Assembly (NCBI GenBank): GCA_051294375.1
Contig: CM119264.1
Coordinates: 19,227,590-19,291,589 of the forward strand
Source of the DNA: Paraspadella gotoi
Taxonomy: Eukaryota > Animalia > Chaetognatha
Direction of reading: 5' to 3'
DNA: 64,000 nucleotides
The position numbers and the translations under genes were made by a program. Numbering within the stretch: the first letter of the stretch is position 1; every line of letters begins with the position of its first letter. Below, in pieces: positions 1 to 63,304 of the stretch. The notes under the pieces are model-generated. The model was not told the DNA's origin. It searched no databases and saw only the letters and a list, made by a program, of their open reading frames with translations.

Positions 1-304
1 GAAGGAAGGGTACTCGGTTTGACTTCGAAACGAGTAAAAGCGTGGCAGGCAAAGCGTGTCAGGGGTGAAGACGTGACAGGGTGGTAATTGTGCGTCATCA
101 CATTTTTTTTTTCTTTCAGATGGGGCGATATTCTGCTTAAGAGGAGTAGCCGGCCTCGTTATTTAGAAAGCTGGATTAACTTTGTAATCACAAGCTTTGT
201 AAAATATTCTGAGGATTATAACCCGTCGACCAAAACGTTGCATTCACGCACCAAAGGACTATCAACAATCGACGCAACAAGCCAAGCATCAGAAAAGGGG
301 CGTC

Positions 305-568
305 TTTGGCACAGCCGGTTTGCTTGTGATTTCCCCTTGGGATGGGGTATCTCACGTTGGCTTTGGGGGCTTCCGACCCTCAGTGCGCCTCCAGTCACTG
401 GCGTGGTTACCCTAGGGACGGTATCGCTTTGCCAACGGTAGAGGAAAGTCATTAGGGGTTACTGTGGAGTGTGGATGGAAACACGTACTGGGATGGTGTG
501 TTCCCCTCTGATCCAATGGTATTTGGTGAACGATGGTGGATGCGAGGCAGTGTGATATACCTGCCACA
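305..568 (-). mobile_element. Twister-bearing solo-LTR-like short element, family A (mirror image of 13310-13570)
   Basis: The minus strand reads TGTGGC...GCCAAA. It aligns by eye with 48075-48274 and 51843-52028. Flanks cgtc/cgaa (gtcg/gacg in the mirror copy) are compatible with a degenerate 4-bp TSD. Confidence 0.7.
355..437 (-). ncRNA. Twister ribozyme-like motif, P5 permutation, family A (general-base G position reads U)
   Basis: Minus strand: CGTTGGC AAA GCGA TA CCGT CCCTAGGG T^AA CCAC GC CAGTGAC..G(T)CACTG A GGG TCGG AAGC CCC CAAA GCCAACG. P5 is 7 bp; P3, P4, T2 (GC/GC) and T1 (CGG/CCG) can all form. Predicted cleavage between 409 and 408. Confidence 0.65.
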
Positions 569-6500: not shown

Positions 6501-6891
6501 TTCAGTGTGGCATATTCGCCGTGCCATATGCCACCCTTCGGACTCCTTCTGCTCCTTTCTTTGAATTCAAAAATATTGGACGGGTTTAGGCGTTTGGGCG
6601 GCGCCGAAAACGGCTTTGTATTTCGGCGTAAATGAACGCTAAACCAATTCCTGTCAAAAAATTTGAATTTTTAGTGATTCAAACAAGATGACGTTTTTTT
6701 ATAATTTATTCATAAAATCAAAAGTCCGATCGTTTTGGACGGATTCTGAAACGTCTTAAAACGATCGGTGAATGTCTAAACAGCAAACAAAAAGTGGGAT
6801 AAAAACCGAAAGGAAAAGTATCTTCGAAATGAACTGTACTATCGAAATCGGATACACAATTCATCCCCAATATTGGTAACGAAAAAGCATT

Positions 6892-6894
<3 letters not shown>

Positions 6895-6972
<78 letters not shown>

Positions 6973-7020
6973 ACTCCCGCGGCCCAAAAAACGCCATCTT
7001 CCGATGAGAGAGAGAGAGAG
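6895..7020. repeat. (CT)n and (GA)n microsatellites forming the palindrome apex
   Basis: Directly visible: (CT)n at 6895-6972, unique spacer at 6974-7004, (GA)n at 7006-7020. Confidence 0.95.
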
Positions 7021-8033
7021 GGAAATGCTTTTTCGTTACCAATATTGGGGATGAATTGTTATCCGATTTCGATAGTACAGTTCATTTCGAATGATACTTT
7101 TCCNNNNNNNNNNTATCCCCACTTTTTGTTGCTGTTTAGACATTCACGATCGTTTTAAGACGTTTCAAATCCGTCAAAACGACGGACTTTTGATTTTATG
7201 AATTAAATTATAAAAACGTCATCTTGTTTGAATCACTAAAAAATTCAATTTTTTGACAGAATTGTTTAGCGTTCATTACGCCGAAATACAAAGCCTGTTT
7301 TCGGCGCCGCCCAACGCCTAACCCGTCCAATATTTTTTGAATTCAAAGAAAAGGAGCAGAAGGAGTCCGAAGGGTGGCATATGGCACGGCGAATATGCCA
7401 CACTGAATACGGAAAATGCCGTGGAGCATATGGCGTTGGACGGAGAATTTTCAATTCGTTCCGCTCGATTTTATTTTCAGAATTTGAGTGGAGAGCGAAG
7501 CTTCGAAATTTATGAAAACGCTTCGATCAGAGCCGGTCGGGTCCAGAGTCGGTGTGAGGAATAACTGAGATAAAAATATTCGTCGGGTTTAAGTTGTTTT
7601 TTTTTTCTGCCGACCCGACACTACAGTAAGTGGTCGAATGCGTTTTCTTTTGTGATTTTATAACAAACTGAGTATGTGGGAATTCGTAAGTACTAAAAGT
7701 CAGTATCGTAATAAAAAAACCGATATCTATTGTAGATCACTATATAAGACATTAACTTTAAATAAACCTTTTAAGCTAAGAGCAAAACCCAATAATTTTC
7801 TGTAATTCATAAATTGTACTATTAGAAATCACGATGGCAAACCTATGACAAAAAATTCGTCGCTACGTAGATCAAAAAAGGTTCTATTTTTAGTAATGTT
7901 GTTTTTTTTTGTTTTTTCGCCCGGTGCACAGCTGCTCAGTATTCTCGCCACAGACCGGACTCTACTCACGCGGCTTCCTACTCAACACCTCCTCGTCAAG
8001 TGGAGAAGCGAACTTGGACGCTTCAGCCGCAAG

Positions 8034-39627
<31,594 letters not shown>

Positions 39628-39856
39628 GTGAGTCTACTTTTTTTTAACTCATAAACTTATTATTTTTGCGATGTTCTCTTTGGCTATCGACTCGTGACCA
39701 TTTGAAAACTGCCGCTATAAAAAATATTATGATAATTGATTTTGGTTTGAGTTCGTAATGAGCAAAAAAATATGAGGATTAAAATTTCAAATAAAGGGAA
39801 ATTTTTTTTCTGAAATAAAAGAGGAAATTCGTGGCTCTGTTGAGCAATCATAATCT

Positions 39857-40090
39857 TGTGGCGAATCCTAAATTCGCCTCCCGTATAGCTTGGTGAAACT
39901 CAGCTCGTTCATCAACCGTGATTTCCGGGTTCAATCCCATGACGCTCGCGCTGGTTAAGGTGAGATGGTGTCGCCATAAACACGCCAGTGACATGAGGTG
40001 GTCCCTGCGGGTCCAAAGCCCTGAACGTCAACTGTCGGGATATCTGCCTTCACACCTCGGGCGTTCACACATGGTCTCTGGTGTCGCATA
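39857..40090 (+). mobile_element. Twister-bearing short element, family B
   Basis: Starts TGTGGCGA and ends near GTCGCATA. Same architecture as family A (5' hairpin, twister, 3' hairpin). TSD not resolved. Confidence 0.65.
39940..40030 (+). ncRNA. Twister self-cleaving ribozyme, P5 permutation, family B; catalytic nucleotides apparently intact
   Basis: TGACG(P5)..GTGA(P2') GA TGGT(T1') GTCGCCA T^AA ACAC(P2) GC(T2) CAGTGAC..GTCCCTG(P3) C GGG(P4) TCCA(T1) AA GC(T2') CCT(P4') GAA CGTCA(P5'). Order and spacing match the recalled twister core. Predicted cleavage 39977/39978. Confidence 0.75.
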
Positions 40091-43000
40091 TGCGCATCTA
40101 AATAAGTATTATTAGAAAGCCGTTAAAAATATTATACCTGTCTATTAACTATTCTTAGAACTAATGTAGTTATATTTCTATACCTTGTAACTTTGACTGG
40201 GCCGCATATTTTGTTTTTAAGTACCTGTCGTCAAAATGTCAAAATCTCTTCACGTTTTCCGTTGGTGATTTTTTTCTAGCGGTGCGTTTCAAATAGTCAC
40301 CCAGTATACCCAATACCCATTCTTCGTCTCATTCCAGCGACGACTTTGATTTCTGCCCGAAAAGAATCACTTTTTCACAACAAAAATCAGAAATAATCGG
40401 CGACGCAGCCAACAGAGACGGGCTTGACGTCGCCTCCGACGCTAATATCGGCGCTCACGAAGAGAACGGCGCCGAGTCATTTGATACCATCGGCGGCTCC
40501 TTCACGGGAAATTCGAGCGCCAGCGGCGTCCTGTCGCCATCGCCAGCTCCTCAGACTGATTTGAAGCGGTTCTTGAGTCATCAAATGTGATGTTTTGGAT
40601 GATGCGTCCGCCATGATCCAAAACTAGTATGAGAGGCTTTAGGTCTATTTTTTTGCTTTTATTGAATGTTGGATGAGAGATGATTTCAGTTGCTCTATTT
40701 TTTAATAGTTTTTTTGTTCATGCTTTTTTTTTATAATAAATCTTTCTGTACATATTGGTAGGTTGTTAACAAATTTAAATCTATTGAATATCCAACCTTT
40801 CGTTGCTTGGGAAAACTTTTTCCTTATTTTTAATTGTTTTTACTTTCCATTTACAACATCAACCGATTAACTCGTACATGTTTTTATATTTTGAAAGCTC
40901 ATAAAGTGTTATTTACCGATTTAATTAATATTTGTTTAATTGTTCGATGACAACTTGACCCTAATTTCTGTGTTTTTAAATTTGTTCGTATTCGTACACA
41001 TAATTACCGGGTTTTTCTCTTTTTTATCATCCTGTTAGTTAGATAAATGCAAAAACATTGAAATTATTATTAGCAAGAATAGCAAAAATCAAAATCTGAG
41101 TAACTTAACCAACTGTTTTTCAATTGTACCAACTGAAAGGCTGTTTTAAAATGAATGGGTAAAAATCAAAGAAAGTTGATAAAAGTTAGTTTTTTTGAAG
41201 TTTGAAAAAAAGTTGGTGGAATTAATCCGAAGAAAGAACAAAGAAACTTACGAGGTGAAAAAGGAAGCGATGGCTGCAGAATGAAAAAGAAATCGAAAAA
41301 AGAAGCAAACGAAAGTAAATTAAAGGAGAAGATTTAATCGAATAATTTTTTATTAAAATCAATGATACCAATCAATAAAATAATATTGTTTAAACAGGTG
41401 TAAAACATCTGGATGAAAACTGTCTATGAATTGATTGGAAGTTGAAATGAGATTGATAGGAAGGAGAGGAGTGGAAAAGAAATGGAACCGAGCCAAGCGT
41501 GAAATGTGAAAGTGTGAAAGAAGGAATCCGATCCGGCGCCAATCGAGTAAAGGATCAAAATCGAAATTTGAGAAAAGAGTTGGTATAAAAAATAAAGAAT
41601 TAATAAAAAAATAAAATACCGATAAAAATTTCGACGCATATGAAAAAAATATAACTTATTATTGATTGTACCATTTTCAAATCACATTCAAATAAAAAAA
41701 AAAAATTAAAAAGTGTCGATATGAAATCCTAAATAAATAAAAAAAATACAATAAGAAACAATACTCTTCTAAACCGCTTCAAAAATAAAAATTTTCATTT
41801 TATCTTCAGCTTTTCTCTCTCTCTCTCTCTCTTGCTCTCTTCTTCCTTCAAACTTTCCTCCCTATCTCCCTCCCAGAGTTTCTGCTGATGCGACTGAAAA
41901 AATTTGGTTGCAAAAAAAGTAATAGAAGGTAATGGGAAATAGAAAAAAGTGGAGGGGAGAGAGAGAGAGTTAGAGTTGATTGTAAAATTAAGTAGGTTGG
42001 GAGGACAAAGGAAATAGCACAAGGCAGTAAAAAGAAAATAAAAGGGAGAAAGAGATGAGAGAGAGAGAGAGAGAGAGAGCGAGAATAAATATGTTAAAAA
42101 GGATATAGGTTAAGCTCAGAAGGACAGAAAGAGTTCGAAAGACCATTGCTAATTTGTTTCCTTTTATTCTGCCGTCATTGACGCTGAGGATGTCGAGGAG
42201 ACGCTCACACAAAGTAGTTTCCACCGGAAGTTTTCCGTCGTCTTTTTTCTTTCATCGTTCATTAAAATTCATGTTAAAAATCCAATTTTAATCTCTTTTA
42301 ATTTTAATCTCATTTCTATAACCAGATGAGGGAATATAAAATTCAAATTATCCGTTTACCACCTAACGCATGTGTTATTTTCTGCCACTTCTAAATTCGT
42401 AAATTATTTTTTTTTATCTATATCTGACTCTCTTTTTTTTTCCTTTTTTTAAACTTTTTTTTCTTTTCCTCTCCTCTCCTCTCCTCTCCTCTCCTCTCCT
42501 CTTCTCTCCTCCACTTTTATTACTCTTCATCTTCTTTCATCTTCTCCCTTCCAATATCCTTTTCCTCTCATCCAATTTTCCTCCTTTGCTCTCTTCTCCA
42601 ACCAACGTGACCATCTGAGCAGAATAACTTGTCACAGTTCTTTGCGCCTTCTGCTCGACCAATCGAGAGACAGAAACGGTGAACGTTGCTACGAAACCAA
42701 GTAAAATTTTTTATCACCTCTAAGTGACGGCTCGACACGAAGGATACAACGAAATAAAATAATACTTTTTTAACAATCCTTTATCTATATATATTGTACG
42801 TTGTACGACAGTGTTGTTCCAACAATACATACATACCATAAAATAAACATTTATAACTATATATATTGCAAGATATATTTTCCGCAATGTTCGCACAAAG
42901 ACACCCAACTCTCAAAACGAAAGGGAAAAAAGGAAGAGAGAGAAAAAAGAAAACCGGAATCATAAATTTGTTTCCGACGAACGCGAGACGAATCGATGAA

Positions 43001-43529
43001 CAAAAGAGACGCGACATCGATAGTTGTTGTCATCGTCGTTGTTGTCGTCGTCGTCGACTCCCTGCACGTCGACGTCGAAGTTGAAAAACGGAAGTAATCA
43101 TCGATAATTTTGTTTTGATTTTTATTTATGTCGCGTTGTTTGTCTAACAAGGGAAAGAGAGGTAGAAATAGTGAAATGGAAATTCATAGACATACTCTCC
43201 TCAAAAGTCGAGCCGCTGCGATCGATCATGGGCTACGCATTTGACGTCCTTGTTTTGTCAAAAATGTTGTTCCCGTTGCAAAAATTTAAAACATAAACTA
43301 AAAATATATATTCTTCTGATATGATTAGTCATTTGCTCTTGATGCCATTGGCTTGTTAAATTCAGGTCTCCAGGTCTTTACGGTATAGAAATCAATCGGT
43401 AAACTTTTACTACATATAGAAACGTAGGTTTAATTATTTATACTATTAACGAAAATACTCAAGGTTCGTCTCCTTTTCTCTCATGATCCGTCTACTTCTT
43501 ATTCTTCCTTTTCTTGCTTTTTCCTTAAA

Positions 43530-46500
43530 CTACTCTTCCTCCATGTAAATAAATCGTTTGACCGACGCAGGTAAATCGCGCCACCGGAAGTCAGCTTTCT
43601 TCGTCGCCAGCGTCCGACCCAAGTAACGTCGCAGAGAGATGCGGCAAAGTTGCTGCAGAGGTTGCGGCTGAAAGCAGAATCGATGCAGCCAACAGAGACT
43701 CGAATTTCGCTGCCGAGCGTCGTTTTGGTCGACATCTATTCGTTCTTTCTCTGCGACATCTTCTTCTTCCTCCTCCTTCCCTTCCACCGCCGCCCATAAT
43801 CGGTTAGTCACGTCTCCGCCAACTCGACTTCCCGCCAAAAGCAGCAACTTGCAACTCGTCCAAGAGAATCCGTCCATCGCTAGTCTGGAAGCAAAAGGTT
43901 GGCTAAAATTTACCATAAGAATATTTCATGGGGTGAAAAGAATTCAAATGAATATACATATAATACATACTGAAAGTAATAAATATTAAAAAATGTTATG
44001 CCTTTGTTTCTCCTATTTTTTAATGTATTCGAGCTCAAGAGATACAATAATCACACACACACACACCTCTCTCTCTCTATACATATTGTTGGACCATTCC
44101 CAGGTAAAACTTTCCCTTCTAATATTTTTAACCGCTTTTTTCACTTTTAAAGCCTACATCTATATCTCTGTATCTCTTGTAAAAGAATTTCTTTTCACAG
44201 CCCTTACCAGCCACCTTTTAGGCTTCTTGGTCCCAATCACACATTCCCTTAAACTATTCCAAGTTGCAACTCAATGGACCCGGGTAACCTTGTAACCACG
44301 TGACCTGAGCGGCGTCTCTCCAAAAGCGTTGACGACGTTGGGGTCAGCGCCGGCGCGAAGGAGAAGGCGCGTCCCGGCGTCGAATTTGTGTCGCGTCGAA
44401 ACGTGGAGGGCGCTGGTTTTGTCGGTGTCCTGAAGCCGACGTCAACAGTGTTGTTCCAATAATACATACATAAATAATCCAAATAATCATTTGGATCACC
44501 TTATCTGTGATTTTCTTTCTCCACCACAACTATACTCCAATCTTAAGAAAAAAAAAATCATAAAGTTTTTTTTATAGTTTTGAACTACTTAAATAAAAAT
44601 AGTACGTAAGTCTAGTGAAGTACTTTTATCATGAATTCAGGTAGCACATGCTCATTGTTGTCATTGCCTCTCTCTCGTTTCCCATCTTTCCCCAATTCTC
44701 TCATGTTTCCTTTGGTTATTTCCTCTGTTTGTCTTTAATCTTTTTCGATGTTGAAAGAAAGAGGGGAACCATTTCAAGCCACTCTCGGTTTTCCTCGGAG
44801 ATTTTAATTCACACTGTGAGTCATGCGTAACATTATATATATATTGCATGGCCTCGTTTTCAACCATTCTAGTTAATTTCAATATTTGACGTGTCGAGCT
44901 CGACTTGCTCTTTTCTCTTTCATCCTTTCTCACTGTTATCAGCTTCAAAAGCAGAACCCACATGATTGTTTTCCTCTCGACTGCCAACAAAAGAACGGAT
45001 GACAAAGTTATCTCTCTCCTCTCTTTGTACCCCGTTCTCTTTTCTCTCCCTTTTTTATCTCAATTCCAATTGTTTTCCAAATAATTTTCCCCTCCATTCC
45101 CGACGCGACCAGAGGGCGTCTGAAGTAAACAAAAGACACTATCGTCGCGTTTTTCTTTTCAATCTTCTTTTTTTTTCATTTCGAAAATTGGATCGTTTCC
45201 AAACAATCTTTAATGCTTTTTCATGCCATTCTCTCGATTATCAAGCTCCTCAATTACTCGCGTTCCCTCGTTTTCTCTCCCTCTTCCTTTCCCCCGTCAT
45301 TCGGTTCGTTGGGAAATTGATTCGCGGCTGCGCGAGCGATAAAAATGAACGATTCCTTCGCCGCTGGGGATCGTAGCGGCACCGATCGAGACGAGCTTCA
45401 TCGATGTTCTTTTTTTTTTTATTTCCTTTTTGTTTTGCGCCGAAAGCCATCGAAATCAGGGGATTTGAAACCGAGGAAATCAGGGAAATTTTTGGCGCGA
45501 CCTCCCACGTCTTTTTCTTTATAACTAATTTAGGTATCTCATCTTATGTATTTTCCTTTCTCTTTCGTTTCCTAACAAGCTTCATTCTTTGAATTTTTTT
45601 CAAAATCTGATTACTTTTTAAAACTTTCAAATCATTTTTTTTAACATTCTCAATTATTCGTATCCCTTTTTCTCGATCTTTGCTTACTTCATTCACGTTT
45701 TCTTTTCAATTGCTCATTTATTCCATCGATCACTATCTTCTCTATTTATGTAGTAATGTTATAGTAAGTACAAAGCCTTGTCTCTTTCCAAATTTCCCTT
45801 AACCCTCCACTTTTTTTTTCAATTAACTTCAGCAGCTGACCTTTTCAACCAAACTCTCTAAGCCAAATTCACGTTTTTTAACACTAACGTTTTCACCAGC
45901 TTCGCCGACCGCATTTAAATTCATCACTGAATATTATTACGTATAGCCAAGATATCATTTACTCGTCACCCAACTCCAACGGCTTGAACTCTTTTACATA
46001 CTCGGATCTTACCTTATTCCGCCCTCCGTTGTTTTTATCGTTTTTTTTCCCGATCTCCATTACCCAAGTCACTTTCCTTCCTTCCTTCGTTCGCCTGATT
46101 CACTATCCTTCCTTCATCCTTCCGCCATTTTACCTACCATTTCTTCTTTTCCTTTTAAATCCATCCATGATGCTTTTCCTTGATTTTTTATCACCATCTT
46201 CCGTCTCCCACCGATAACTATTTCTTCTTCCCGTTTCTGTATTTCTCCATCTGCTGTCTAATTTCCGTTTCCTTCTTCGCCCTTTTCCTCTTTCTAATTC
46301 TCCCAACATCCAGTCACCGCTCTCTCACGTTCCCCGCCCCCTTTTTGCGTCAATTTGCGCACACAACGCCGTTCACTTTCAAGAGCCTCTCGGTGTTAAA
46401 AGTTCATCGCCGTTGCTTCCTTTTCGAAGCAGAGGGGGGAATCTCCTTTCAAAACTTTCTCTTCCGCCCCCTCAAACCTTCTTCGTTCCCTCTACCATCA

Positions 46501-46681: not shown

Positions 46682-49600
46682 CTATCTCCTCTCTTTCACT
46701 CGCACAGACTCTCTCATCCCCTCTTTGTGGAGAGATGAAGAAAGAAAAGGCATCTTGTTCGCTTTATAGACTTTTTTCTTCTCGGACGCGAAAAACAAAC
46801 ATAAACAAACAGGGAGGAAAGAAGGAGGAATAGGAGTGGGATATTTGATCTTTTTTTAGTTTTCTCTTTCTTCTGCCGCCGAAAAAGAATCGTGAGAAAT
46901 CATTGTTATCGGATGCGAAAAAAGTGACGCGGCACGGATTCATTAATACAAAATGTTTCTTTTTCCTCATTTTGCAAGACTCCGTACTTGTTTGCTTTTG
47001 CCTTTGACGGATTGTCACCTTCGTAACTGTAAATCTTGGTCAGCCGCTTAACGGTTATTTTCCCTTATTGTTATTAACCATTAAATCAGTGCCTTTTCCT
47101 CACCACGACGTTTGGGTCGGCGACTCCTCTTCTCAGTAGGACCTCGCAGCAGGCCACGTCCTTCAACGACATCGCATGCAGCAGCGGGTTGCGGCCGCAG
47201 TCGGCGTCGGCGCCCTCGTCGAGAAGAAGCTCCATCACGTCGCAGTGACCTTCGTTGAGGGCTTTGAGGAGGGGAGAGCTGATCATGGAACCTCGGAGAA
47301 AGAGAAGAATAAACGTTCTAGATTTTTTCATGACATTTCACAATCAAAAACAACGTTTTACTCAAAATTAAGCCAAGCAATTCAATTTTTTAATATCAAT
47401 TTGAATATTATTTTTAAAATGATTTTTTAAACGACATAAAATTTAATTGAAATATGTATGGCAGCAACAACCAATTTGAAAAAAAAAAACAACAAAAGAA
47501 CTAATATCAGAACTAAATAAAATCGAAAACAAACAATTTTTTTCTTAATTTAGTGTTATTTTAAAAGGCTCTAAAAAACTTATAAATACAATGCTCTAAA
47601 CCAAAAAAACTGGTTCAGCTTCGAAACGAATGCAGTAATAGGCAAAATTTGGTATTTAGATTCTCACCATCTTTAATAATAAAATAGAAGAAGGGCATAA
47701 ATCGAATAAAATTGTACATTAGTTTCATACGTTGATGTCTCACTCTCTCTCAAAAATTAAAGTAAATAGTAAGATTATTAACCTTTTTTTTTCCAATTCT
47801 AGACGGGTAAAGCTTTATTCGCCCAAGTTTTTCCAATTATTTTCAAATGCTTATTTTTCCTACCGTCTGTTCGTTTTTTTTTTCCTTTCACTAGGACGAG
47901 CTCGCTTTCCCACTTGGTTCCTCCTTCCCCTTTTCCTCAATCCTCATGCATCCCAACGATAATCACACCAATTTTTCTTTCTCTTTGCGAAGCAAGAAAG
48001 AACTCTTTAAAAACTACAGTTTCACTGGTAAAGGAAAGAACCTTCTTCAAAAATACATTTTAAAACTAAAAGATTAGGGCAACAACCGGGTTGCCTGTAA
48101 TGCCCTTTGGGATGGGGCATCTCACTTTGGGTTTAGGGGCTTCCGACCCTCAGTGACGCCTCACTGGCGCGGTTACCCTAGGACGATATCGCTTTGCCAA
48201 CACAGAGGGAAGTCTTTAGGACTGTGGATGGAACGCAACGCTTGGGATGATGGCGGTGTGAATATATTGCCACAAGATCCTCTTTTCAATTACAAACTAC
48301 ATTTTATTTTTTTTTTGTCAAGGATTTAACAAATTGATAAGCTAATAATTTTACTCACATGAAAAAAAAAGGTTGACAGCCACATCCGCAGAAAATACCT
48401 GTGCAGTAGGCCCCTGTATTTTTGAGGCTGGCGCCTCGTTTGATCAAAAGTTCGCAAGTTTCTCGATGGCCGAATCCCGCGGCGACATAGAGAGGCGTTC
48501 TTCCGAGGCAATCGAGCTGATCTACATCCACGCCGCAATCCAAGAAGACCTCTACAGCATGGGGATGTTGCACATTCTCGTGTATGATATCGGGTTTGCG
48601 CCGAAGGTTGGGCTGAAAAAAAAGGAAGTTTAAGCATGGGTAGATAGGATGGATGGCCGTAAACAAAGTCTCAAGGCATAGGAAGTCAGGAAGATACGTA
48701 GGCATTTTTTAAGGCAAATTTTGAACTTGATTCGCTCCGATTCTCTTGTATCATCTTCTTTGGTTTCTTAATTCATCGTATAACATTTTGGAGCCAAACC
48801 ATCGTTTGGTTGAGTCTTCAATCATCAGGAACCTGCCTCGTTTTATTTTCTGTATTCACTTGAATGTTATAAATGATACATAAGCTTTTAAAAAGATTCA
48901 AACGATTCAAACGTTCCATTGAGCTTCTTGAAATTTTATCACCGAAATACCACCAAAAAAAAGTAAAACGTTGAAACAAATATCAATAACTACTTTTTGG
49001 TGGTTTTATAGACGCAATTACATTAATATTACCAGATATAAAATAAAAAGCAAAAAACGAAAATCGATTTTAAAGACGAAGTCGAAAGTCACGAAGTCTG
49101 CGCAATGCGGAATTGTGAAGGAAAGAGATTAAGGCTGAGAGATGGTGAGAGTGGATTTTCCAAATATGACAGTAGGTCGAATGATGATTAGAAGAACGAG
49201 GAAAAGGTTAAGGTGGGTCAAGGGATGAAAAGAGAGAAGACCGACGAGTGATTAAAGGAAAAAAGGAAGAAGAAAAATCGAAAGAAAACGCGTAAAAAGA
49301 ATTTTGGCGAAAATGGTGAGAATATTCCGCGCCCTTCACCCGCAGAGAATCACGGACAATTCATTCTCACGAAGAAAGTTTGAATTTTGTTTTGGTTTCA
49401 AGTTTTTTCGATAGTTTTTTATTTTTATTTTTAGCGGAATTTTTTCCTTTTTTGAACAACGATAGGGAAATTTTATTAATTTTATTAAAAAAGTAAAAAT
49501 ATATTGAGTTCATTGCGCCGTGCCGAAAATAATATAATAACATTAACGACTGAAAAAAATAAATTTTAGAAATGTAATTTGACGAACGCATCATGCGTAA

Positions 49601-52600
49601 TTAATTGGCAGGAAAAAGACACAAGGAACAGTTTTTGGAGGCGGAAAAACAAGAAGGACGACGACGACATCACGGGGACATGACGACAATGAAACTGTGG
49701 AAACGACGTCATTATCTCTGATTGTAGATGCAGAGCCAGTGAAACATGGCGAAACAAACCGCCCATTTTCTCGTTCTGGATAGGTTTGGAAAAAACACAA
49801 AAGCTAAACAAAACGAGAGACAAAAAAAAACAAAAAAAAATAAAGAGAGAGAGAGAGAGCGTTTTCGGGACGATTTACTACCGTGTACTTAGTGTTAATT
49901 TGTCTTGTTTCCAACAAAATCGCTTTCTTCCTGGATGCAAAACGCTTCAAGAAACGTTTCCACCTCCATTCGTCATTTAAAGGTGCATAAATTTATAAAA
50001 TATAAAGTTTTTGTTCAACATCCGAAAACCAAAGCGGAGGCAACGAAATAACGGAAATTAGAAAACAAAGGGAAGAGAAACATTGTGAAAAGAAAAAGAA
50101 AAAAAGGCGTCATTCGTCTTTCAATGGAAACTTAAGCCGACGACGTCTCATCCCGTTTGTGGTTCCACCTGGATCTTCTTCACTTCCTTTCTTTTTTTTT
50201 GGGGGGGGGGGGTTGGGGGCGAATTTGGTAAGTGGGGAAATGAGGTCGGGGAAAGTGAACTTGGTAGCGAGAATCCTATTTTATCCTCTTCATTTTCCGT
50301 CTTTTCATTCATTCTTTTTCACTCTCCCTTTTTTTCTTCTCTAATTCACCGTCAAAATTGAGACGTGAAAACGGAATTCGATTTTCGGCTGAAAAGTGAC
50401 ATCGAAGACTTGTTTGTTTTTTCAAAAGTCATCTTAAATTTAAATTGGTGAGGCTCAGAAACTTTTTTACCATTTTTAACCAGTTTACTTTTATGGAAGC
50501 AGTTTGCGCCTAAGTTTCTGAAAAAAAAATTGGGTCTATCTTTTCAAAATGTGTTTACTTACATTTATATTTCCATCTAACGATTCCCTTCTCAGTTCTA
50601 TCGTCTTTTGCAGACTTATCGAAAGCAATTCCTTACATCTATCAATATTCTTCACATCCACAATCCTTTCACTTCACGCAACCAACTCGACATTTCACCC
50701 TGGTCCAACGGTTTTCGCCCCGATTATTGGATTATCTCGGGCTCCGTCACCTCACAATCTGCTTTCGAATCCGTCAAAGCGTCGAAAGAAGGGTGAAAGT
50801 CAAAGAAGCGGCTCGAAGGGCGAGGTTCCAATTCGTTAAGGCGAACAAACCGATCTTACCTCCGCGCCTTTGTCCAGCATCTCCACCAGCAGATCCACGT
50901 GACCGCCGCCAGCAGCGTAGCACAGCGGATCGCGTCCCGTCCTGTCGAAGAGCGTGACGTCCGCGCCGCGTTCGAGTAACAACCGCGCCGTGTCGAGGTG
51001 ACCTTGATAGATGGCGCTGTGAAGAGGGTAGAAGCTGCCGCCGTCGCCGCCGACGAAGCGGCCGAAGTCGACGTGGCAACCGCTGGATGGGCGAAAGGAG
51101 GAAAACGAGGAGAATAAGGCGGAGGCGAAATGGTAACTGGCTCGGGATGGACGGCGAGTTCTCTCTTGTATTCATTTCTCTTTCTTTCCCCTTTTTTTTC
51201 CTTGCTTCATTTCTCCATTTCTTAATTTCCCATCCCAGTCGTGCACATTTTCTATTTTTCTTCTCTTCCACAATTTTCCACTCAATTTCACTTCATATGA
51301 TTCAAATTATGCAAAATTTGGTAATAATAGATTAAAATAGATCTACTCTACATTCTAACCCATCCAACAGTCTGCGACACAAATTAGTGAATCCATTGGT
51401 GGCGGCGTAGTAGAGTGGATGCCATCCTTCGCGGTCGCAGATTTGGGGATCGGCCATCAAGTCGAGCAAGGCCACGGCTAAAAGTTGATATAGATATAGA
51501 TGATATAGATGATTTTAAAATGAAACAGTTTCACCGAGAATAATTTTAAGTAATGGTTGACTTTAGGAAACGGCACCTGTGTCCTCGTGCTTGTAATAGA
51601 TGGCGTTGTGTAAGGGATAACTGCCGTCTCCTCTTTGATTGACGTCGGCGCCGCGAGAGACGAGGAATCGGCAAATGTCTGTATGCCCCCCGTTGGCGGC
51701 GCAAAGCAGCGGTGTTGCTCCGTTGACTGTACGAGCGGAGACATCCATCTCCTCCTAGAATTTATACCGTAGTAATTTGGTCACTAAGTTATGTTAGAAA
51801 ATGAGCTGGAGAGGCGTGATGAACCGTTTTTTTACATATATGCTCCCATTGGCTCAGTGGGAGAACACATCCCAAACGTTGTGTTCCATTCCACAGTCCT
51901 AACGACTTCCCTCTCCGAGGCTAACCGCGCCAGTGACAGGAGGCGTCACTGTGAGTCGGAAGCCCCCAAAGCCAACAGTGAGATGCACCATCTCAATGGG
52001 CATCTCAGGCAACCCAACTGTAGCCATAATACTAAAATATTTCCAATTGAAAACTTTAAACATGAAACTTTTTTAAAGAAATTTCTTTATTAATGTGTTC
52101 TTCTCAACAAAGAAAGTAATTTGTCCTTTTCGGTTCAAATTTGAATGAACCTGGAAGGCATTCAAGAGCGCGACGACGACTTTCAACTGTCCCGATTGAC
52201 AGGCCAGAGTCAACGGTGAATGCTCCTCCATCGTTCGATTCACGTCGATGCCTGACGTCCAAATCGCGTCCAACGTCGCCTCAACGTCGCCTAACAGTTT
52301 TTATTTTGTAAATATTTTTTTACGGTCGAGTGATTAAAAAAGGTTAAAAAAAGAAATACAATTCGTTATGTCTTATGGGCTTGACTTTGAAAAATGTTTA
52401 GAAGATTTGTTTTTATTTTATCGCAAAATGGACACCGGTTATTTCGAAGCATTGCTTTTTTCCAGCTTTGATATCATTATACTAAGCTATACATAGTTTT
52501 ACAAAAAAATTATTTTCTTTTCTCACCGTCCATAATGGCGCAAGTGATTACAGTTTCTTCCTCCGTCGGCTCAGCCACAAATTCTTCCCATACAAACGAA

Positions 52601-54118: not shown

Positions 54119-57100
54119 CTACAAATAGGGCAGCGCCCCTGGCCCAACCACCACCTCTTTCTTGCCATATATCAAAAATTTTTCCTGCATGCTTATGATT
54201 CTTTCGGACGATTCCCTGAACTTTTCCTCCTCCCCTTTGTCCAGTTCCAGTGGGTACCAGCCTCTGATTCCCTTGCGGTTGATGTAGCACGGTAGGCTCA
54301 AGAAAACATTTTTTCTTATTCCGAAAAAATCCCTAAAAAAAAGGGCTATTATATAACTTAAAGGGTAAACGCTGAACGCGTTTTCTCCAGTCACCTTTTT
54401 GCCAGCCTTCAAAAAATCTGAACTAGTATATAAATTGTAAAGTGGAAAGTGCATTGATAGGTAAAATAAGAAAAATGCAATTCGTAAATCCTCAAGAATA
54501 AATTCATTGGCTTAGTTATTACTGTTTTATCATTTACAGAAGTTTTAACTTAAAAAAATTTTTACCTCGAATACGCCGCGACTGTGTGAACACGTGGTCC
54601 TTCGATTTCATTTTCAAAAATGTGTTCAATAATATCTTTTATAACGAGTCCAACGCTCCAAACGTAAAACCTCCCCGTGTCCTTTAACCAAGCGTCCCTA
54701 AAAACGACGAAAAATAAGATTACAAAAACGATCAGTCTTTGTTTCTCCCCGGTGGTTATACCGAGAAGAAAATGGTGATTGTAAGGGTGTAGACGACATG
54801 CTTCTATGCTGAAGCAAGTTACAAGTAAAATTTAGCGAGAGTTCAAAAATCAAAGAGCAATGCCATTCTCAGTCATCAACAAAGCATTCCAAAAAATAGG
54901 CTCATAACTTTCGGTATAACCATAGCAAGGTTTTTACATGATCTGATGCTTTGAAAGCGTGCGGGTTGCGACAAATGAAAATAAAACACCTTTGAAGGAA
55001 AAAAATAAGGTGCTTTAATTGAAATAAATATAATTTGTTTTTACATGTGCGCGGCTGGTAGTAGAAAAGTTATTATTATGAATGATAAGAATTCGGACTG
55101 TTAAGTTTTAGTAAAAATGACGCGAGCATATTAAAAAAATATTTAGTGCTATGTTAACTGTCATCAGGGTAATTAATCGTTATTTTACCCTATTTGGTCT
55201 TATTCCGTAGTTAACAGAGTGAAACTTATCTTTTTCTCAATTTTGGGTTTTCTCTTTTTGACGTACGAAAAGTTGCACAAATTTGTATCAAACAACTAAT
55301 GAATGAAAAAGGCAACTATGGTATGAGCGTCTTTCTCAGGAACTAACATAACAAACTAACAAACCAACAAACGAATGAACGAACTAACGAACAACGATGA
55401 AAAAAAGAACGAAGAAACAAATTTGAGAACTGAAACAAAAATATACTAAAAATGAAAATAAAATAAAAATAAAAAAAGAAGAAGAAAGTAAAGAGCGAAT
55501 GAACGAAATTGCGAAATCTTACGACGAACAAAAATTTTCACATATCATAATTTAGAATTTATGTTTATTTTTGGTCTTAAAAATATTTGCAAGTTAGTGG
55601 TTTGTCTATCCTAATCGAATCTTAAAGTGCCATTAAAAGCGCGGCAATGGAATCAAATCAATGAACGAAAATTTTCTTTGCAAAGAACAAAAAGTTTCAT
55701 GCGAATGAAATCTGTTTCAAATATAAACCGGAAAACAGAAAATTTATTAAATAAAAAAAACTAGATACATGCTGTTTAAAATTTATGAGTTCGATCGTAA
55801 CTTTGTTTTTGTGTGTCTCTAAATCATAAAATTACAACACAAAATGAATTATTCACGGCATACATTTGAAACTTTAAAATTTAAATAAACGCCGGCGTTA
55901 AAAGCTTAAAACGACACTTTTAGGCGCGTTTAGCAACTGAGACGATTGGAAAGTTATTATATTATTATTTATTTTATTTATTAAAATTGTCTTGAATTAT
56001 CGTTAAACTTCCGATCGCGTTTTGCTGGAAAAATGAAATTGAGGAATTGAAAAAAATTATACTAGACCCTTGAGAGTAGAAATTTTAAAACGCGTTCGAA
56101 AGCGAGAAAGAGAGAAACGTCTTAGTAGATGAGAAGAGTTTTTTGAAAATCGGAGATTTTTGTCGCGATCGCGTGCAACTTCTGCTCCTCCGCCTCCTCG
56201 AGGCTGATTGTGGTCCAACCCTTGACCCCCAGACGATTCAGGGTCATCGGGGTCGAGAGGAACACCATCTCTTTGATTCCGTAAAGATCCTTCGCGAAGC
56301 TACGGAAGGGAAGGTGGTTTGGGGAAAGAAAATTCGTCTTGTTTTCTTTTCTTTTCGTGAACCGCCGATTAAACGTTAACGATTCGTGCCGTTTTTTAAA
56401 GCTAAGTATTAATCTTACAATATAAAACTGAATCGACGTAGAACTTTAATTGGTAAGCCATTTTAACATTTTATTACACAAAAATTCCTTTTATTTTAAC
56501 AGACTCGGTAGCTATATATTTGTATTTAATTATTTATGAAATTGGTACAACCAATAAAAAAATATATAAGGGAGAGGTCCATAAAATAGTTTTACATGCC
56601 ACCTGGTGAGCGTGAAATTCTCTCCACCGAATCCGTCGGTGAAAATGGAGTAAATGACGTGAGCCAGTGACATTCCGACGGCCAACACGAAACCTTTCTT
56701 CCAGCTCGTCACAACTTGGTTTCTTCACAAAGGAAAATATAAAAATAGTAGCAATAAAATAGAAATGAAATTTTGTTCTTTCTTGTTGTAATCAAAAATC
56801 ATTGTGAAATTTATTTCGATTCTTTGCGTTTTTTCATTTTAAACCATTTTGCCGTTGTTGTAAATCCATAATAAACTGCCTAATGAAAAATCAAATATTT
56901 GATATATACAACGATTTCTCTCGCCAAGAAATAAAACGGTTACTATTATTAGGATTGACATTTAATATTAATAGTTTATAATCAAAATTATTTTTCGTCG
57001 TAGAGAGAACTCAATTCCCGAGAAGCACGAATTGACGTAAAGAGGATCTCTCAGACAACAAAATTAGCTAAGTAGTGACATATAAAGGGGGCACGAAACA

Positions 57101-58874
57101 TAAAAAGCACTGTTCGATGCCTGAGCACATGATTAAGATTTTTATCTCTAATGATTTGTTTTTAAAACGAAATTAAAACTAAAAAGATGTACATAAAAAT
57201 AATAAGCCTTTTTTTTTATTTCCTCATCCGTTTTTAACTCCGTCGATAAAAGTGAACGTAAAAGTTTCAATCTTTTCTTCTACTTCAACTTTCGCTTTTC
57301 ACCAGTCACAAGTTGATAAGTTGATTGCCCTTTTGTTTTGCCAGTCTTCATTCCGCTCGTTATTTGCGTTTTCTTTTTACCATCATTCCTTCATTTCTTT
57401 TAACAGTCATCACTGACACTCACTGACACTCCCCACATTCCGCGCGCACATTATCTTGCTTGTGAAAGCAATCAACTGTTAATACTTAGCTCAACTAGAA
57501 GTAAGATAGACAATACGGAATACTGTTTCAATGCTCTTATTGCATTTTAAAAATTTAATAATGAATAAGAACGCGGCAGAAATGTTTATGTCCTCTTGAA
57601 AACTTCCAAGAGGTATGTCGCTCTGTTAGTAATCATCTTTTTTAGAATTGAATGTCAATATTTCAGATAAATATGGATAAAAAAAATACGCGATGTTCAT
57701 AATCAGCGAAGAAAGTCGCCTCGCCCTTTTTCTTATCCATAGTTATTCCTTCTTTTCTAAAGGCAAACTACGCTGTTTTCAAAACAATTCGAAGATAACG
57801 GAACCGCCTTCCGTTCGAAGTTTATAGTAAAAAAATTAACCAACATTCATCGGCCCACGATTGAGTAGCGCAATCGATGCATGAATCGCCACATCAGCAG
57901 CCCATAGTCATCTCCCGAAGCACAATATCTTCCAGAAGTGAATCGTATCACTATATTGCGCAACAATTTTGATCTTTTTTTTTTCAACAGACACCACAAC
58001 CTAATCCTAGGCTGTTCCCGCTACTCACTCTTCCTTCATAGCGTCCACAATCTCGTTCCACCCTCCGTGATCTTGTGGTGTTCCGAGATGGGGGTTCATT
58101 TTCTTGAAAGAGGTTCCGTTGAGTGTGACGGACATCCAGGCGGGGAAGGGATCCGAGCATTCGCCGATCATGAAACCCTAAAGAGAGTTTTCAAAAACGC
58201 CATGCTATGGCCCAGATAATTTATTTTTTCCGATTAAGCTATCTATATCGACAGGAAACTCGACGATGCACTCCATCACGTGTTTGACAAAACAGCAAAA
58301 CAGCAAAACCGAGCCAACCAACCAAACAAAAACCAAAACAAAAACCAAAACAGCAAAAACAAGACTCAAGAGCGACGACCAGCTCACGTCGATGATCATA
58401 TCGTCGTTGGCTCCCAAGTTCTCACGAATCTTCGTCCGAAATCTAGAGGTGGCCAGGTTCGTTCCGATCCCGATCACACGCGATGTGGAGATGCCCGCGA
58501 TCTTCCACAGCATGTAGCACGCGACTTCGTTTGGCTGCGACGTCACGATGAAAATCGCTTCCGGCGAATTCTTCACGAGTTCCGGGATTAGGCGTCGGTA
58601 GTTCTGATGGAAAGTAATGGAACCAAATATTAAAATATAGAATAAACCATTACAATGAAAATATTTGAATATTTATATTCAAAATTAAACGGAATAGAAT
58701 AGAATAGGATAAATAAATATTAAATAAATAAAATTGAGTAGAATAAAATGAAAAGGAATAAAATTTAATAGAATACAATGGGCTCAGTAGAATGAAGCAA
58801 AATAGAATACGATGGCAAATAATGATGAAAAACAACTTCTCCCACAGTAGCCGAAACCAACATTGAATCCATTA

Positions 58875-58936
<62 letters not shown>

Positions 58937-60917
58937 ACCTGCAGATTGAAATCGGCCAACTGCTCCAGCGAAGTCATATCCTTCCGAAGTCTCGTTCCGA
59001 AGGCGATGACGATGATATCCGAGTTCTTGGTGACTCCGAGATCGAGTCCCGCCTCCACCGTCGTCTTTTTAGTAAAGGATTGACCCTGTTGACGAGGGAA
59101 TGGTTGGGCGGGTTGTGAAAAATAGTGGGCGCCTTCCTTGGTTTGTCGTCACCTTGGTCAATTGTTTAGTTATCGACTCTAGATAGTTGATTTTTCTTGT
59201 AACTACCAAGATTAGATCGACTCCATAATCCACATTTAATCACATATGATATGCATGAAAAGGGTTATTATTTACAGATTTGCGCTGAGTTTTTGTTATG
59301 AAATTGCGTGTGCATAATATAGAAAAAAGCTTTTAAAATGCATTTGCTTTTTTACCAAAAAATATCACTGAAATTGCTAGTGCATATATGTAGGACAGAA
59401 AAGCCTTAGAAAGAACAGCATGAGATCTGAATTTAAATTAAAAATATCGTCCTTTAAGCCAAACTATGGTTTAATTTATATAGTACTTTTATTACAACAA
59501 AACAAATTTTTCTGGAGAAATTTAACCATGTCAAAAAAATATTTTTTAGCTAAAATTCTGCCTTTTTTACAATTTTTTAGATAGAAAATCTAACTCTAAC
59601 AAATATTAAATCCACATAGCCGCATAATTTATCAAAATTGGAGAAAACTTAAGAGATGTTATTTTTTCTGGCAACTGGGTCATTGAATCCTAAAATTACG
59701 AAGAAGTAATATTATAGTAGATCAATTATTACGAGTATAATAATATCTTTTTTAGTTTTTTATATTTAGTTTGGTCAACCTTATAGATATTTAGTTATTT
59801 TCAAGGTTGATCTTTTTTTCAGAAAAACTAAATCATAATTTATTTATAATTGATGTTTCCAAACGATCAACAAACGAGTTTTTTTCTTATCTGCAACCAT
59901 TCGGCATTGACGAATCTTTAGAGATTTTATTAACCATAACCGCTTGGCACCACAACCTTCAATATTCTTTTGCACTCGTGAATTTTTAGGTGCGTACCAC
60001 AGGTTATCCTTTAGAGCGAGTAAATTTTATACTAGGTATGAATTTAACTTCTCACGTTGATATTATCAATAATCATTTCTAAGAAAACTATACTATCAAT
60101 TTAGATGAAAATTTACGCGCTGAATGTTAAAAGTTGAGAGTTCAACTGGAATTCTGGGTCAATAAAATTCTTTCATGCGTAAAATTTAAATCTTGCCTCC
60201 CCTGATTGGGTGAAACGTGTAGTAAAAGACGAGATATTCTCCGTTTTATCCAATGAGCATAAAAATTGTGGCGTAAATGGTCAGTGGCGGGAAAATCGAG
60301 TTCCTGGGCCAATGAAAGACTCTGGGAGTGTGAGGTTAATTTTGGAGCGATGCAAGGATGTGGACCGAAATCAGAACGACGGGAGAGAAAAAAAGGAAAG
60401 GGTTGTGCGCCTTTTTTAAAAGCATCATATTAGATTTTCCGGACTTTGTTTTTCCTTATACCATAAATTCTCATTTAAAAAGAAATAGAAATCGCTTCTT
60501 TTCTCATTTATTATAAATCTTTTTTCCTTCTTTCTCTTTCAAAATTCAACGCGAAAAATTTCATCGTTTGTCTCTTTTTTTTGTTTTTGAAAAAAAAAAT
60601 TCCCTTTTATTTTGTTGTTGATAGAGAATTAAATTCATTTCGTCGCGCCATACATATTTTTTTCTTCCAATGTTTTTCTCGTTTTCTCTTCCTCGTTTTT
60701 TTTCCTTTTCGCTTAGTCGTGTGCTGCTCCACCCACATCAAACTCTCACCCTTCCTTCACACTTTCTATCTTTATTTTCTTTACACTCTCTGTTCACATT
60801 TATTTCTCGGCTTCTAGTTTATCACGCTACGCAACATTCGAGTTATTTGGTTGGAACGTTTCAGTCCATTATCGCTTTGAATTTTGTTGGTTTTCTCATA
60901 ATCTAATAGTTGATTAA

Positions 60918-60976
<59 letters not shown>

Positions 60977-61372
60977 ATCTGACCTGCAGGATATCGAGGC
61001 CTTCGGCGTGAGCTAAGCTGCCATCTTCGTCCAAGAAGACGATTTCTCTGGCCGTCCCTTAAGGGCGAGGTTGAATTAGTGGGTAAGCGGAAGTGGAAGA
61101 ATTAAAAGGAAGAAAACGTTGGCAGGGCAAAGAGAGACGGTTGGATAATGGATAAGCAAAGAAGTCACGACGAAATAGAAATCGCTTATTTTCTCATTTA
61201 TTATAAATCTTTTTTCCTTCTTTCTCTTTCAAAATTCAACGACTATAAACAATTACATAAAATGGAAGGGATTCACCAACCGGTTAATTTCTAATGATAA
61301 ATTGCTAAACTAAACTAAAAAAATCTATATTTTATGTATTTTTTAAATAAATATATAAATAAATAAATAAAA

Positions 61373-62500: not shown

Positions 62501-63304
62501 AACAATGTCGGATCTGCCCACGATCATTATAATTAATTAATTAATAATTAATAAATTAATAATTAATTTAAGTTAATTAATTATTTAATTAATTAATTAT
62601 TAATTTATTCAAATTAATTATTTAATTAATTAGGCAATTAATTCATTAATTTGATCCAAAAAGTTTGTTTTGATTGATTAATTGACTGATTAATTAATTA
62701 TTGGTAAATTAATTGACTAATTGATTAACTGAATAATTATTTGATTAATTAATACATCTTGCATTTACATTTAAAATAGTTAGTGAAACAGATTCTTTGT
62801 TTTTTCTATTTAAACTCATTTCCACTCAAACGATTCCATTCAAACTTAATTTCCAGTTTAATCACACACTTTCCTACCCACATACAAAATTTCAAGTCAA
62901 TCGCCCCATCCACTCATGAGTAGTTGGTGTTCAAATTGTGAATTACATTTTTTGTTTTTTCCATTTAAACTCATTTTCACTCGGACGATTCCATCGAAAC
63001 TTTATATCCAGCTCAATCACACACTTCCCTACCCACACACAAAGTTTCATTCCATCCATCCATCCAATCACGAGTAATTGGTGTTTTTTGCTAAGGTGGG
63101 ACGGACGGACGGACGGACGACGGACGGACGAATGGACGGACGGACAGACAGATGGACGGACATCGTTTTTTGGCATAATTTATCATAATTCGATGTTCTG
63201 ACATGATATAAGTGAATGCCCGACAAGATTGAGGGGGCGGACCGACGGACCGACAAAGTGAATTATAGAGCCGGGATCTGCTAAAAGCAGATCCGACTAA
63301 AAAA
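62501..63304 (+). mobile_element. Non-autonomous Helentron-type element (HINE/DINE-1-like)
   Basis: 11-bp subterminal inverted repeats GTCGGATCTGC (62507-62517) and GCAGATCCGAC (63287-63297). 3' stem-loop GGATCTGCT-AAA-AGCAGATCC followed by an A-rich end. Two ~150-bp tandem core repeats (~62796-62931, ~62951-63088), a (GGAC/AGAC)n microsatellite at ~63100-63161 and an internal TTAA-rich tract. Confidence 0.8.

Follow-up and report, generated by a model that had tools for sequence, protein, structure and literature searches.

The short element at positions 48075-48274 raises the question of what kind of mobile DNA places a twister-like fold between fixed ends and whether that fold is likely to cleave. 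An earlier note, made from the letters of the window (the whole stretch of 64 kb of DNA analysed here), had read it as a solo LTR of an LTR element or retrozyme. The window is part of a draft eukaryotic assembly with uncorrected long-read fill and contains 25-N gaps.

Copy A and its target site

Inspection of the sequence revealed TG...TA ends and an exact AGAT on either side of the element (copy A); the chance of two random local 4-mers matching was p ~0.006. The 200-bp element with imperfect inverted termini and an exact AGAT duplication described earlier was thus found at 48075-48274, with 6/8 positions of the terminal inverted repeat matching. The following features were assigned to it:

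48075-48274, minus strand: copy A, 200 nt; lacks ~60 nt of 5'-half sequence present in copy B, the A box among them
48275-48278, unstranded: target-site duplication (TSD), 5' side in the element sense, AGAT on the plus strand
48071-48074, unstranded: target-site duplication, 3' side in the element sense, AGAT on the plus strand
48267-48274, minus strand: 5' terminus, beginning with TG and forming one arm of the imperfect 8-bp terminal inverted repeat; homologous end fixed in family contigs
48250-48273, minus strand: 5' hairpin, predicted in copies A, B and D (-4.8, -8.8 and -9.2 kcal/mol, respectively)
48222-48238, minus strand: T-arm/B-box-like remnant of a tRNA-like region, with 3 mismatches to the B-box consensus in copy A
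48096-48124 and 48078-48095 (together 48078-48124), minus strand: two predicted 3' hairpins
48075-48082, minus strand: 3' terminus with TA end; loose contig ends at 48078 in four runs

Folding of the whole of copy A did not exceed that of shuffled sequences (z -1.21). The copy is located in an intron of an ankyrin-repeat gene (47105-52292, minus strand) in the sense orientation, and three exons of this gene are joined in one spliced contig from sequencing run X9. Another gene of the window, at ~56150-61100 (minus strand), is spliced and encodes a divergent animal-type lactate dehydrogenase (LDH). Its exon had 14 relatives at 81-88%, with C-terminal parts differing as if alternatively spliced, and the best solved-structure matches to the LDH relative were animal LDHs, which makes the host animal-like.

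Four loci in the window

The regions 1-13869, 16355-29125 and 30019-45070 were sequenced two or three times (~90% identity) between 25-N gaps, the first being a fold-back read and the last a double read. These repeated reads are assembly artefacts and not duplications. The copies at 305-568 and 13310-13570 represent one molecule sequenced twice (fold-back, 92% identical), and the same applies to those at 32220-32457 and 39857-40090. The six copies therefore collapsed to four independent loci in ~41 kb of non-redundant sequence, the number of loci in 64 kb given in the earlier note. Besides copy A, these were:

13310-13570, plus strand: copy B, complete at 261 nt; read again on the minus strand at 305-570
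51843-52028, plus strand: copy C, truncated at its 5' end; A box at 51850-51860 exact; deletion of the P2'/G-A segment
39857-40090, plus strand: copy D, of the second subfamily, read again at 32220-32457; B box at 39928-39938 exact; G-A and both pseudoknots present in the core

Copies A, B and C were 82-89% alike among themselves and only 50-57% alike to copy D, in agreement with the second family postulated for 32220-32457/39857-40090. A profile built from the six copies recovered those six only within the 64-kb window. The remark that just one target-site duplication is exact also held: beyond copy A, the duplication of copy B matched at 3/4 positions in the 13310 read and 2/4 in the 305 read, that of copy D was uncallable in two noisy reads, and copy C is truncated at its 5' end. 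Copy C lies antisense in another ankyrin-gene intron, and begins ~7 nt upstream of its A box, which is the expected start of a tRNA-type transcript. No partner LTR, primer-binding site (PBS) or polypurine tract (PPT) was detected at any of the four loci in the 64-kb window (0/4), nor were tandem copies; all four loci are single units. Elsewhere in the window, a 30-bp stretch at 45456-45485 (minus strand) matched the B-box region of copy D at 83%, possibly by chance, and a 155-bp unit is present in two tandem copies, 83% alike, at 62783-63085.

A high-copy family with fixed ends

The region was present in nine public sequencing runs of one organism, and a family profile was obtained from their contigs. 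Contigs of runs X2, X5, X7 and X9 were aligned to 47600-52400, and those of X9 and X6 to copy B. Run X9 is presumably an RNA run and contains the spliced contig of the ankyrin host gene. The contig depth summed over the element was thousands of times that of the flanks (485061 versus ~190 in X2); this sum is not a copy number and was read solely as an order of magnitude, corresponding to hundreds to thousands of copies in the genome.

In X6 and X9, the depth over copy B began at 13310 and ended near 13570. At least 55 contigs of X6 departed from the reference at the 5' end and at least 31 at the 3' end (agreement 0.43 and 0.48, respectively), as did at least 19 and 18 contigs of X9 (agreement over both runs 0.43-0.50). 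At 48078, in the 3' terminus of copy A, 19, 16, 15 and 7 contigs left the reference in four runs, with an agreement of ~0.5. Because so many contigs departed at the same points, both ends of the family are fixed, with unrelated flanking DNA and no tail, and the TA at the 3' end is the family norm. The earlier caveat that the 3' ends read TA/AA rather than CA was thus correct as to the letters, which reflect this norm and not decay. In X6, ATAT-like letters adjoined both ends, as a 4-bp palindromic target would give. Poly-A tails and variable ends, the pattern that the earlier note had set against its own reading, were looked for in the family contigs and not seen, and its notion of a mobile family with fixed ends was borne out by the high copy number, two sharp ends, unrelated flanks and a 4-bp-type target signature.

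No head-to-tail joint (from the 3' end back to the 5' start) occurred among the 15 of 16 joints listed, all of which were internal skips, and no PBS- or PPT-like signal was present among the 12 of 213 loose-end rows listed for copy B. Both tests are weak, as conserved junction contigs were possibly too short to align. The joints argue against common head-to-tail tandems and lend no support to two-LTR copies.

The depth profile of the RNA-like run X9 over the element followed that of the DNA runs, which is compatible with passive read-through or DNA background and is not evidence of autonomous expression. A 1998-nt contig of X9, with a depth of 213.6 against 9.5 for the host-gene contig, carried a diverged element copy near one end and may stem from a host transcript or belong to a larger element. 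A 462-nt contig of X6 (depth 187.5, many times single-copy) contained the element to just past the predicted cleavage site, followed by other sequence; it is possibly a subfamily embedded in another repeat. Searches for relatives gave 0 matches in the viral collection, 0 in prokaryote genomes and 0 in one metagenome scan. Seven metagenome matches from a second scan were rejected as chance by eye and with Rfam.

A type-P5 twister-like fold

Descriptor searches, folding and covariation indicated a twister-like fold of type P5 in the element, with the following predicted parts in copy A:

48127-48200, minus strand: type-P5 twister-like fold
48196-48200/48127-48132, minus strand: P5, predicted fold
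48184-48192, minus strand: P2', G-A positions and T1'; U replaces G at 48188
48176-48183, minus strand: P1 segment, 8 nt, self-complementary
48174-48175, minus strand: U(48175)^A(48174), site of predicted cleavage according to the fold and the Rfam P5 consensus
48167-48172, minus strand: P2/T2, predicted fold
48151-48166, minus strand: P3, predicted fold
48136-48149, minus strand: P4/L4, predicted fold

The descriptor found the strand order P2'-GA-T1'-P1-U^AA-P2-T2-(P3)-P4/L4 in copies A, B and D. In its generic form, it passed 25 distinct phage loci among 72 pattern matches. A strict P5 descriptor gave one match in the window (copy D, 39960-40022) and none in 200 shuffled windows. A relaxed one, loosened after the copies had been inspected, matched copy A, both reads of copy B and copy D, as against one match in 200 shuffles, and missed copy C and the 32220 read of copy D. 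Covariation was scored on four rows from three loci and two subfamilies: 70 of the 75 cells were paired (93.3%), compared with 29-51% in slid controls. Both sides had changed in 4/20 pairs, two of them in pseudoknot T1, which is essentially one contrast between the subfamilies. T1 was paired at 3/3 positions in A, B and the 39857 read of D, including the two double-sided changes, and T2 was paired as well; the 32220 read had one broken pair in each pseudoknot. A reading as a type-P1 twister with a downstream G-A was rejected by eye, since its T1 partner was unpaired.

The Rfam models did not report the fold. The scan of the whole window returned no twister match at E<=1. The twister-P1 model gave partial matches of 14.1, 15.2 and 12.5 bits for copies A, B and D, respectively (gathering threshold 67.2), and no twister match for copy C. 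The twister-P5 model (RF02684, threshold 37.6 bits), which the earlier note had named as a check, listed no match for A, B, C or D, and 11/11 phage loci used as positive controls scored 47.5-68 bits, so that this check went against the note. No hammerhead match was obtained in the Rfam scans of the window or of copies A-D. The P5-permuted twister core proposed earlier stands on strand order, pseudoknots and covariation, with no Rfam threshold reached. The phage loci (L008-L079) are type-P5 twisters, several with a long P3, and the 11 tested all pass Rfam.

The window copies differ from the phage cores at two points. Their P2 has 3/4 pairs, with a mismatched first pair (C.A or A.A), and their P1 is 8 nt long with 2 bp, whereas in 34/34 phage P5 cores the first P2 pair was present and the P1 segments had 15-30 nt. 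The general acid A is present in all copies. The general-base G is present in D, replaced by U in A (48188) and B (13452) and deleted in C (~51915); all three subfamily-1 loci of the window have therefore lost it, two by a G-to-T change and one by deletion. This could reflect selection close to host genes, or the three loci could belong to a minor subfamily. In the family depth, the general-base G accounted for 97.6-99.5% over 47600-52400 (runs X2, X5, X7 and X9) and, on copy B, for 375385/375865 in X6 and 31884/31952 in X9 (>99.7%). Most of the family depth keeps G-A, the middle pair of P2 and the P1 segment.

Published sources are cited here and below for the parts of them covered in the analysis. 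Natural P1-type twisters tolerate flaws in P1 and P2, and the change of the general base from G to U lowers their mean cleavage from 0.76 to 0.34 (PMC11662667). Since such P1/P2 flaws are tolerated and the G-to-U change is harmful in P1-type twisters, the common form of the family probably cleaves, by analogy, and copy A probably cleaves poorly.

The palindromic P1

The P1 segment of copies A and B formed no stable hairpin (0.0) and a self-duplex of -11.0 kcal/mol. Among the variants listed for X6 and X9, none at P1 positions reached 3%. In copy D, P1 is symmetric at 6/8 positions around a different self-complementary centre and its duplex is weak (-1.5). The two-strand fold of the core of copy B paired through P5 and not through P1. 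Axolotl hammerheads with a weak stem and a palindromic tetraloop cleave better as dimers (PMC7229834). On this analogy, we hypothesise that the twister may act as a dimer through its palindromic P1.

tRNA-like boxes upstream of the fold

An exact A box is present in copy C (51850) and an exact B box in copy D (39928), in tRNA order, each with a partner box carrying 2 mismatches; no copy has both boxes exact. The A/B-box consensus applied here is consistent with the published description. The majority letter of the family contigs at 13366 improves the A box of copy B to 1 mismatch. Loose pairs of A and B boxes occurred at 11 places in the window, and neither ARAGORN nor Rfam detected tRNA genes in the copies. 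For these reasons, the evidence for putative tRNA-like Pol III promoter boxes upstream of the twister fold is moderate. A run of four T is absent from all six reads.

The family includes ~45 nt ahead of the predicted start, and their depth equals that of the other terminal part. A plain Pol III (SINE-type) retrocopy would lose these 45 nt, so their retention appears to need an LTR or DNA-level mechanism. In copy A, the A-box segment is deleted. Because it has lost both the A box and the general-base G, copy A is probably silent and a poor cutter, and on its sequence it is probably a decayed, crippled copy of the family. The earlier reading lacked the tRNA-like boxes, the palindromic P1 and this probable crippling.

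Nature of the element and its proposed cycle

We put at about even the chances that the element is the solo LTR of a small non-autonomous, Gypsy-dependent, retrozyme-like retrotransposon. The grounds for the LTR reading are the fixed TG...TA ends, one exact 4-bp duplication, the high copy number, the boxes and the covarying fold. Of the earlier proposal of solo LTRs, the fixed ends, the 4-bp target signature and the twister fold are in place, and a two-LTR copy, PBS or PPT was absent from the window and the listed joints.

In the proposed cycle, a non-autonomous element would borrow a Gypsy-type integrase for its mobilisation. Transcription of a two-LTR copy by Pol III would begin ~45 nt into the 5' LTR and would not encounter a T-run. 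Cleavage by the twisters of both LTRs would set free an RNA of unit length that lacks terminal redundancy, and a host ligase would close this RNA into a circle. A reverse transcriptase that copies the circle all the way round would restore the LTRs together with the 45 nt preceding the start, and integration would give the 4-bp duplication. With a weak palindromic P1, the two LTR ribozymes may pair and cut better together than a lone intronic copy that is read through.

The full version of this scheme, an animal LTR retrozyme with a tRNA-derived Pol III promoter and with twisters in both LTRs that yield a circularisable monomer and act as dimers through the palindromic P1, is a speculative one that we hold to be doubtful. 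If true, cutting would take place only when two LTRs share one RNA and thousands of solo intronic copies would be nearly harmless. It would also join Helenus-type TRIMs to retrozymes and provide a natural double twister.

Alternative explanations

It is possible, if rather unlikely, that the 260-bp unit is the whole element, either a MITE-like DNA transposon or an integrase-borne mini-element without an internal region, with a captured tRNA-plus-twister cassette. All four loci are single units, both ends are fixed and the loose ends listed carry no internal-region signal, as such a unit would have it. Short non-coding units that reach a very high copy number are typical of MITEs, and TGT ends with 4-bp TSDs are found among Ginger transposons. 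DNA transposons of the MITE/Ginger type, however, commonly have substantial terminal inverted repeats in common with a transposase-coding partner, and the inverted repeat here is merely ~8 bp and imperfect (6/8). Moreover, compensatory changes have preserved the twister fold in two subfamilies that are only 50-57% alike. This suggests selection on an RNA stage, which cut-and-paste transposition would not need.

A non-autonomous monomer derived from Penelope/Naiad elements, that is, a twister-bearing non-LTR retrozyme that would have integrated by target-primed reverse transcription, is improbable. Animal retrozymes of 150-400 nt are tied to Penelope-like elements and can be monomers (PMC7229834; bioRxiv 10.64898/2026.07.22.740005), and the 5' truncation of copy C would suit this origin. 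Naiads, though, show heavy 5' truncation and partial tandems (PMC8557442), and in animal retrozymes the units are arranged in tandem and the TSDs exceed 4 bp (PMC7229834), whereas here both ends are sharp, no tandem is present in the window and no head-to-tail joint appears among the 15 of 16 joints listed.

There is also a slight chance that the fold is the remnant of a twister, or only resembles one, and no longer cleaves anywhere in the family. The failure to reach any Rfam threshold, the broken first P2 pair, the minimal P1 and the loss of the general-base G at 3/3 subfamily-1 window loci point that way. Against it, most of the family depth retains G-A together with the P1 segment and the middle pair of P2, and the descriptor matches were far above those in shuffled sequences.

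A tRNA-derived SINE carrying a twister, for which the A and B boxes and the start of copy C just before its A box could speak, is disfavoured and very improbable, given the ~45 nt upstream of the predicted start, the lack of an A-rich or repeat tail, the fixed 3' end and the 4-bp TSD.

Novelty and meaning

The sources covered associate twisters with LINEs of the RTE/Perere-3 type, with phages and with RNA viruses, and describe LTR retrozymes as hammerhead-bearing elements of plants (PMC6765202, PMC7761336, PMC5680766, PMC10085705, PMC13725137, PMC8501958, bioRxiv 10.64898/2026.07.22.740005). In the literature covered, which took in part of the Helenus supplement, no description of a twister in an LTR, TRIM or MITE was found, and the retroelement role of twisters known there was restricted to the 5' end of RTE-type LINEs; a twister-bearing LTR may still be listed in that supplement or in Repbase. 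The present analysis adds putative tRNA-like, Helenus-like A/B boxes upstream of a predicted twister, together with a palindromic P1 resembling dimer-dependent hammerheads. If confirmed, the family would show that the ribozyme-circle route can also be taken by another class of ribozyme and in an animal-like host, and thousands of natural variants would be available for asking what eukaryotic twisters do. The twister-like folds of this family escape the Rfam models.

Comparison with known systems

The element resembles a retrozyme LTR in layout, and its membership in the LTR retrozymes, in Helenus or in the Rfam P5 family is not proven. Metazoan non-LTR retrozymes differ in having a type I hammerhead, tandem arrays, longer TSDs and no LTR-type ends (PMC7229834; bioRxiv 10.64898/2026.07.22.740005). 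The Perere-3/RTE twister variants resemble the element in that a twister with a weak P1 is associated with a retrotransposon of animals (Liu et al. 2021, PMC8501958). They belong to a coding LINE, whose 5' end the ribozyme trims, and the TSD lies directly next to the site of cleavage (PMC8501958), whereas here the predicted cleavage site is in the middle of a non-coding unit with fixed ends.

With type-P5 twisters (RF02684), the element has in common the strand order, U^AA, the GC/GC and 3-bp pseudoknots, P4 and L4, as well as the G-A in the family majority and copy D. It differs in an 8-nt palindromic P1 in place of an 8-bp stem and in the mismatched first P2 pair, and is unreported by the model.

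Plant LTR retrozymes, the source of the ribozyme-circle model (PMC4918200), are likewise non-coding, with the ribozyme in an LTR-sized unit, a 4-bp TSD, many LTR-only loci and ~55% GC (Cervera et al. 2016, PMC4918200). They carry a type III hammerhead (PMC4918200), whereas the element has a P5 twister-like fold, an animal-like host and, as a further difference, putative tRNA-like boxes. Two LTRs, PBS, PPT and circular RNA have been demonstrated for plant retrozymes (PMC4918200), and the element is known from solo units; in tobacco, full-length retrozymes occupy only nine of hundreds of loci (PMC9695139).

In animals, Helenus elements carry tRNA-like LTRs, generate 4-bp TSDs and reach LTR copy numbers of up to 5575; the fungal Helenus LTR-1_PGr has TG...TA ends and two bivalve Helenus LTRs start with TGTGGC (PMC10886601). 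The element has parallels with Helenus/TRIMp3 in its putative tRNA-like A/B boxes in a short TG-started repeat, the 4-bp TSD in animals, LTR copies numbering up to thousands and, with some LTRs, the TA end or the TGTGGC start (Kojima 2024, PMC10886601). In the parts of that source covered, a ribozyme is mentioned in a reference title only, and the Helenus LTRs examined have the tRNA-like part near the 3' end, usually followed by a T-rich stretch (PMC10886601). In the element described here, the tRNA-like part belongs to the 5' half, the twister fold comes after it and a T4 run is absent.
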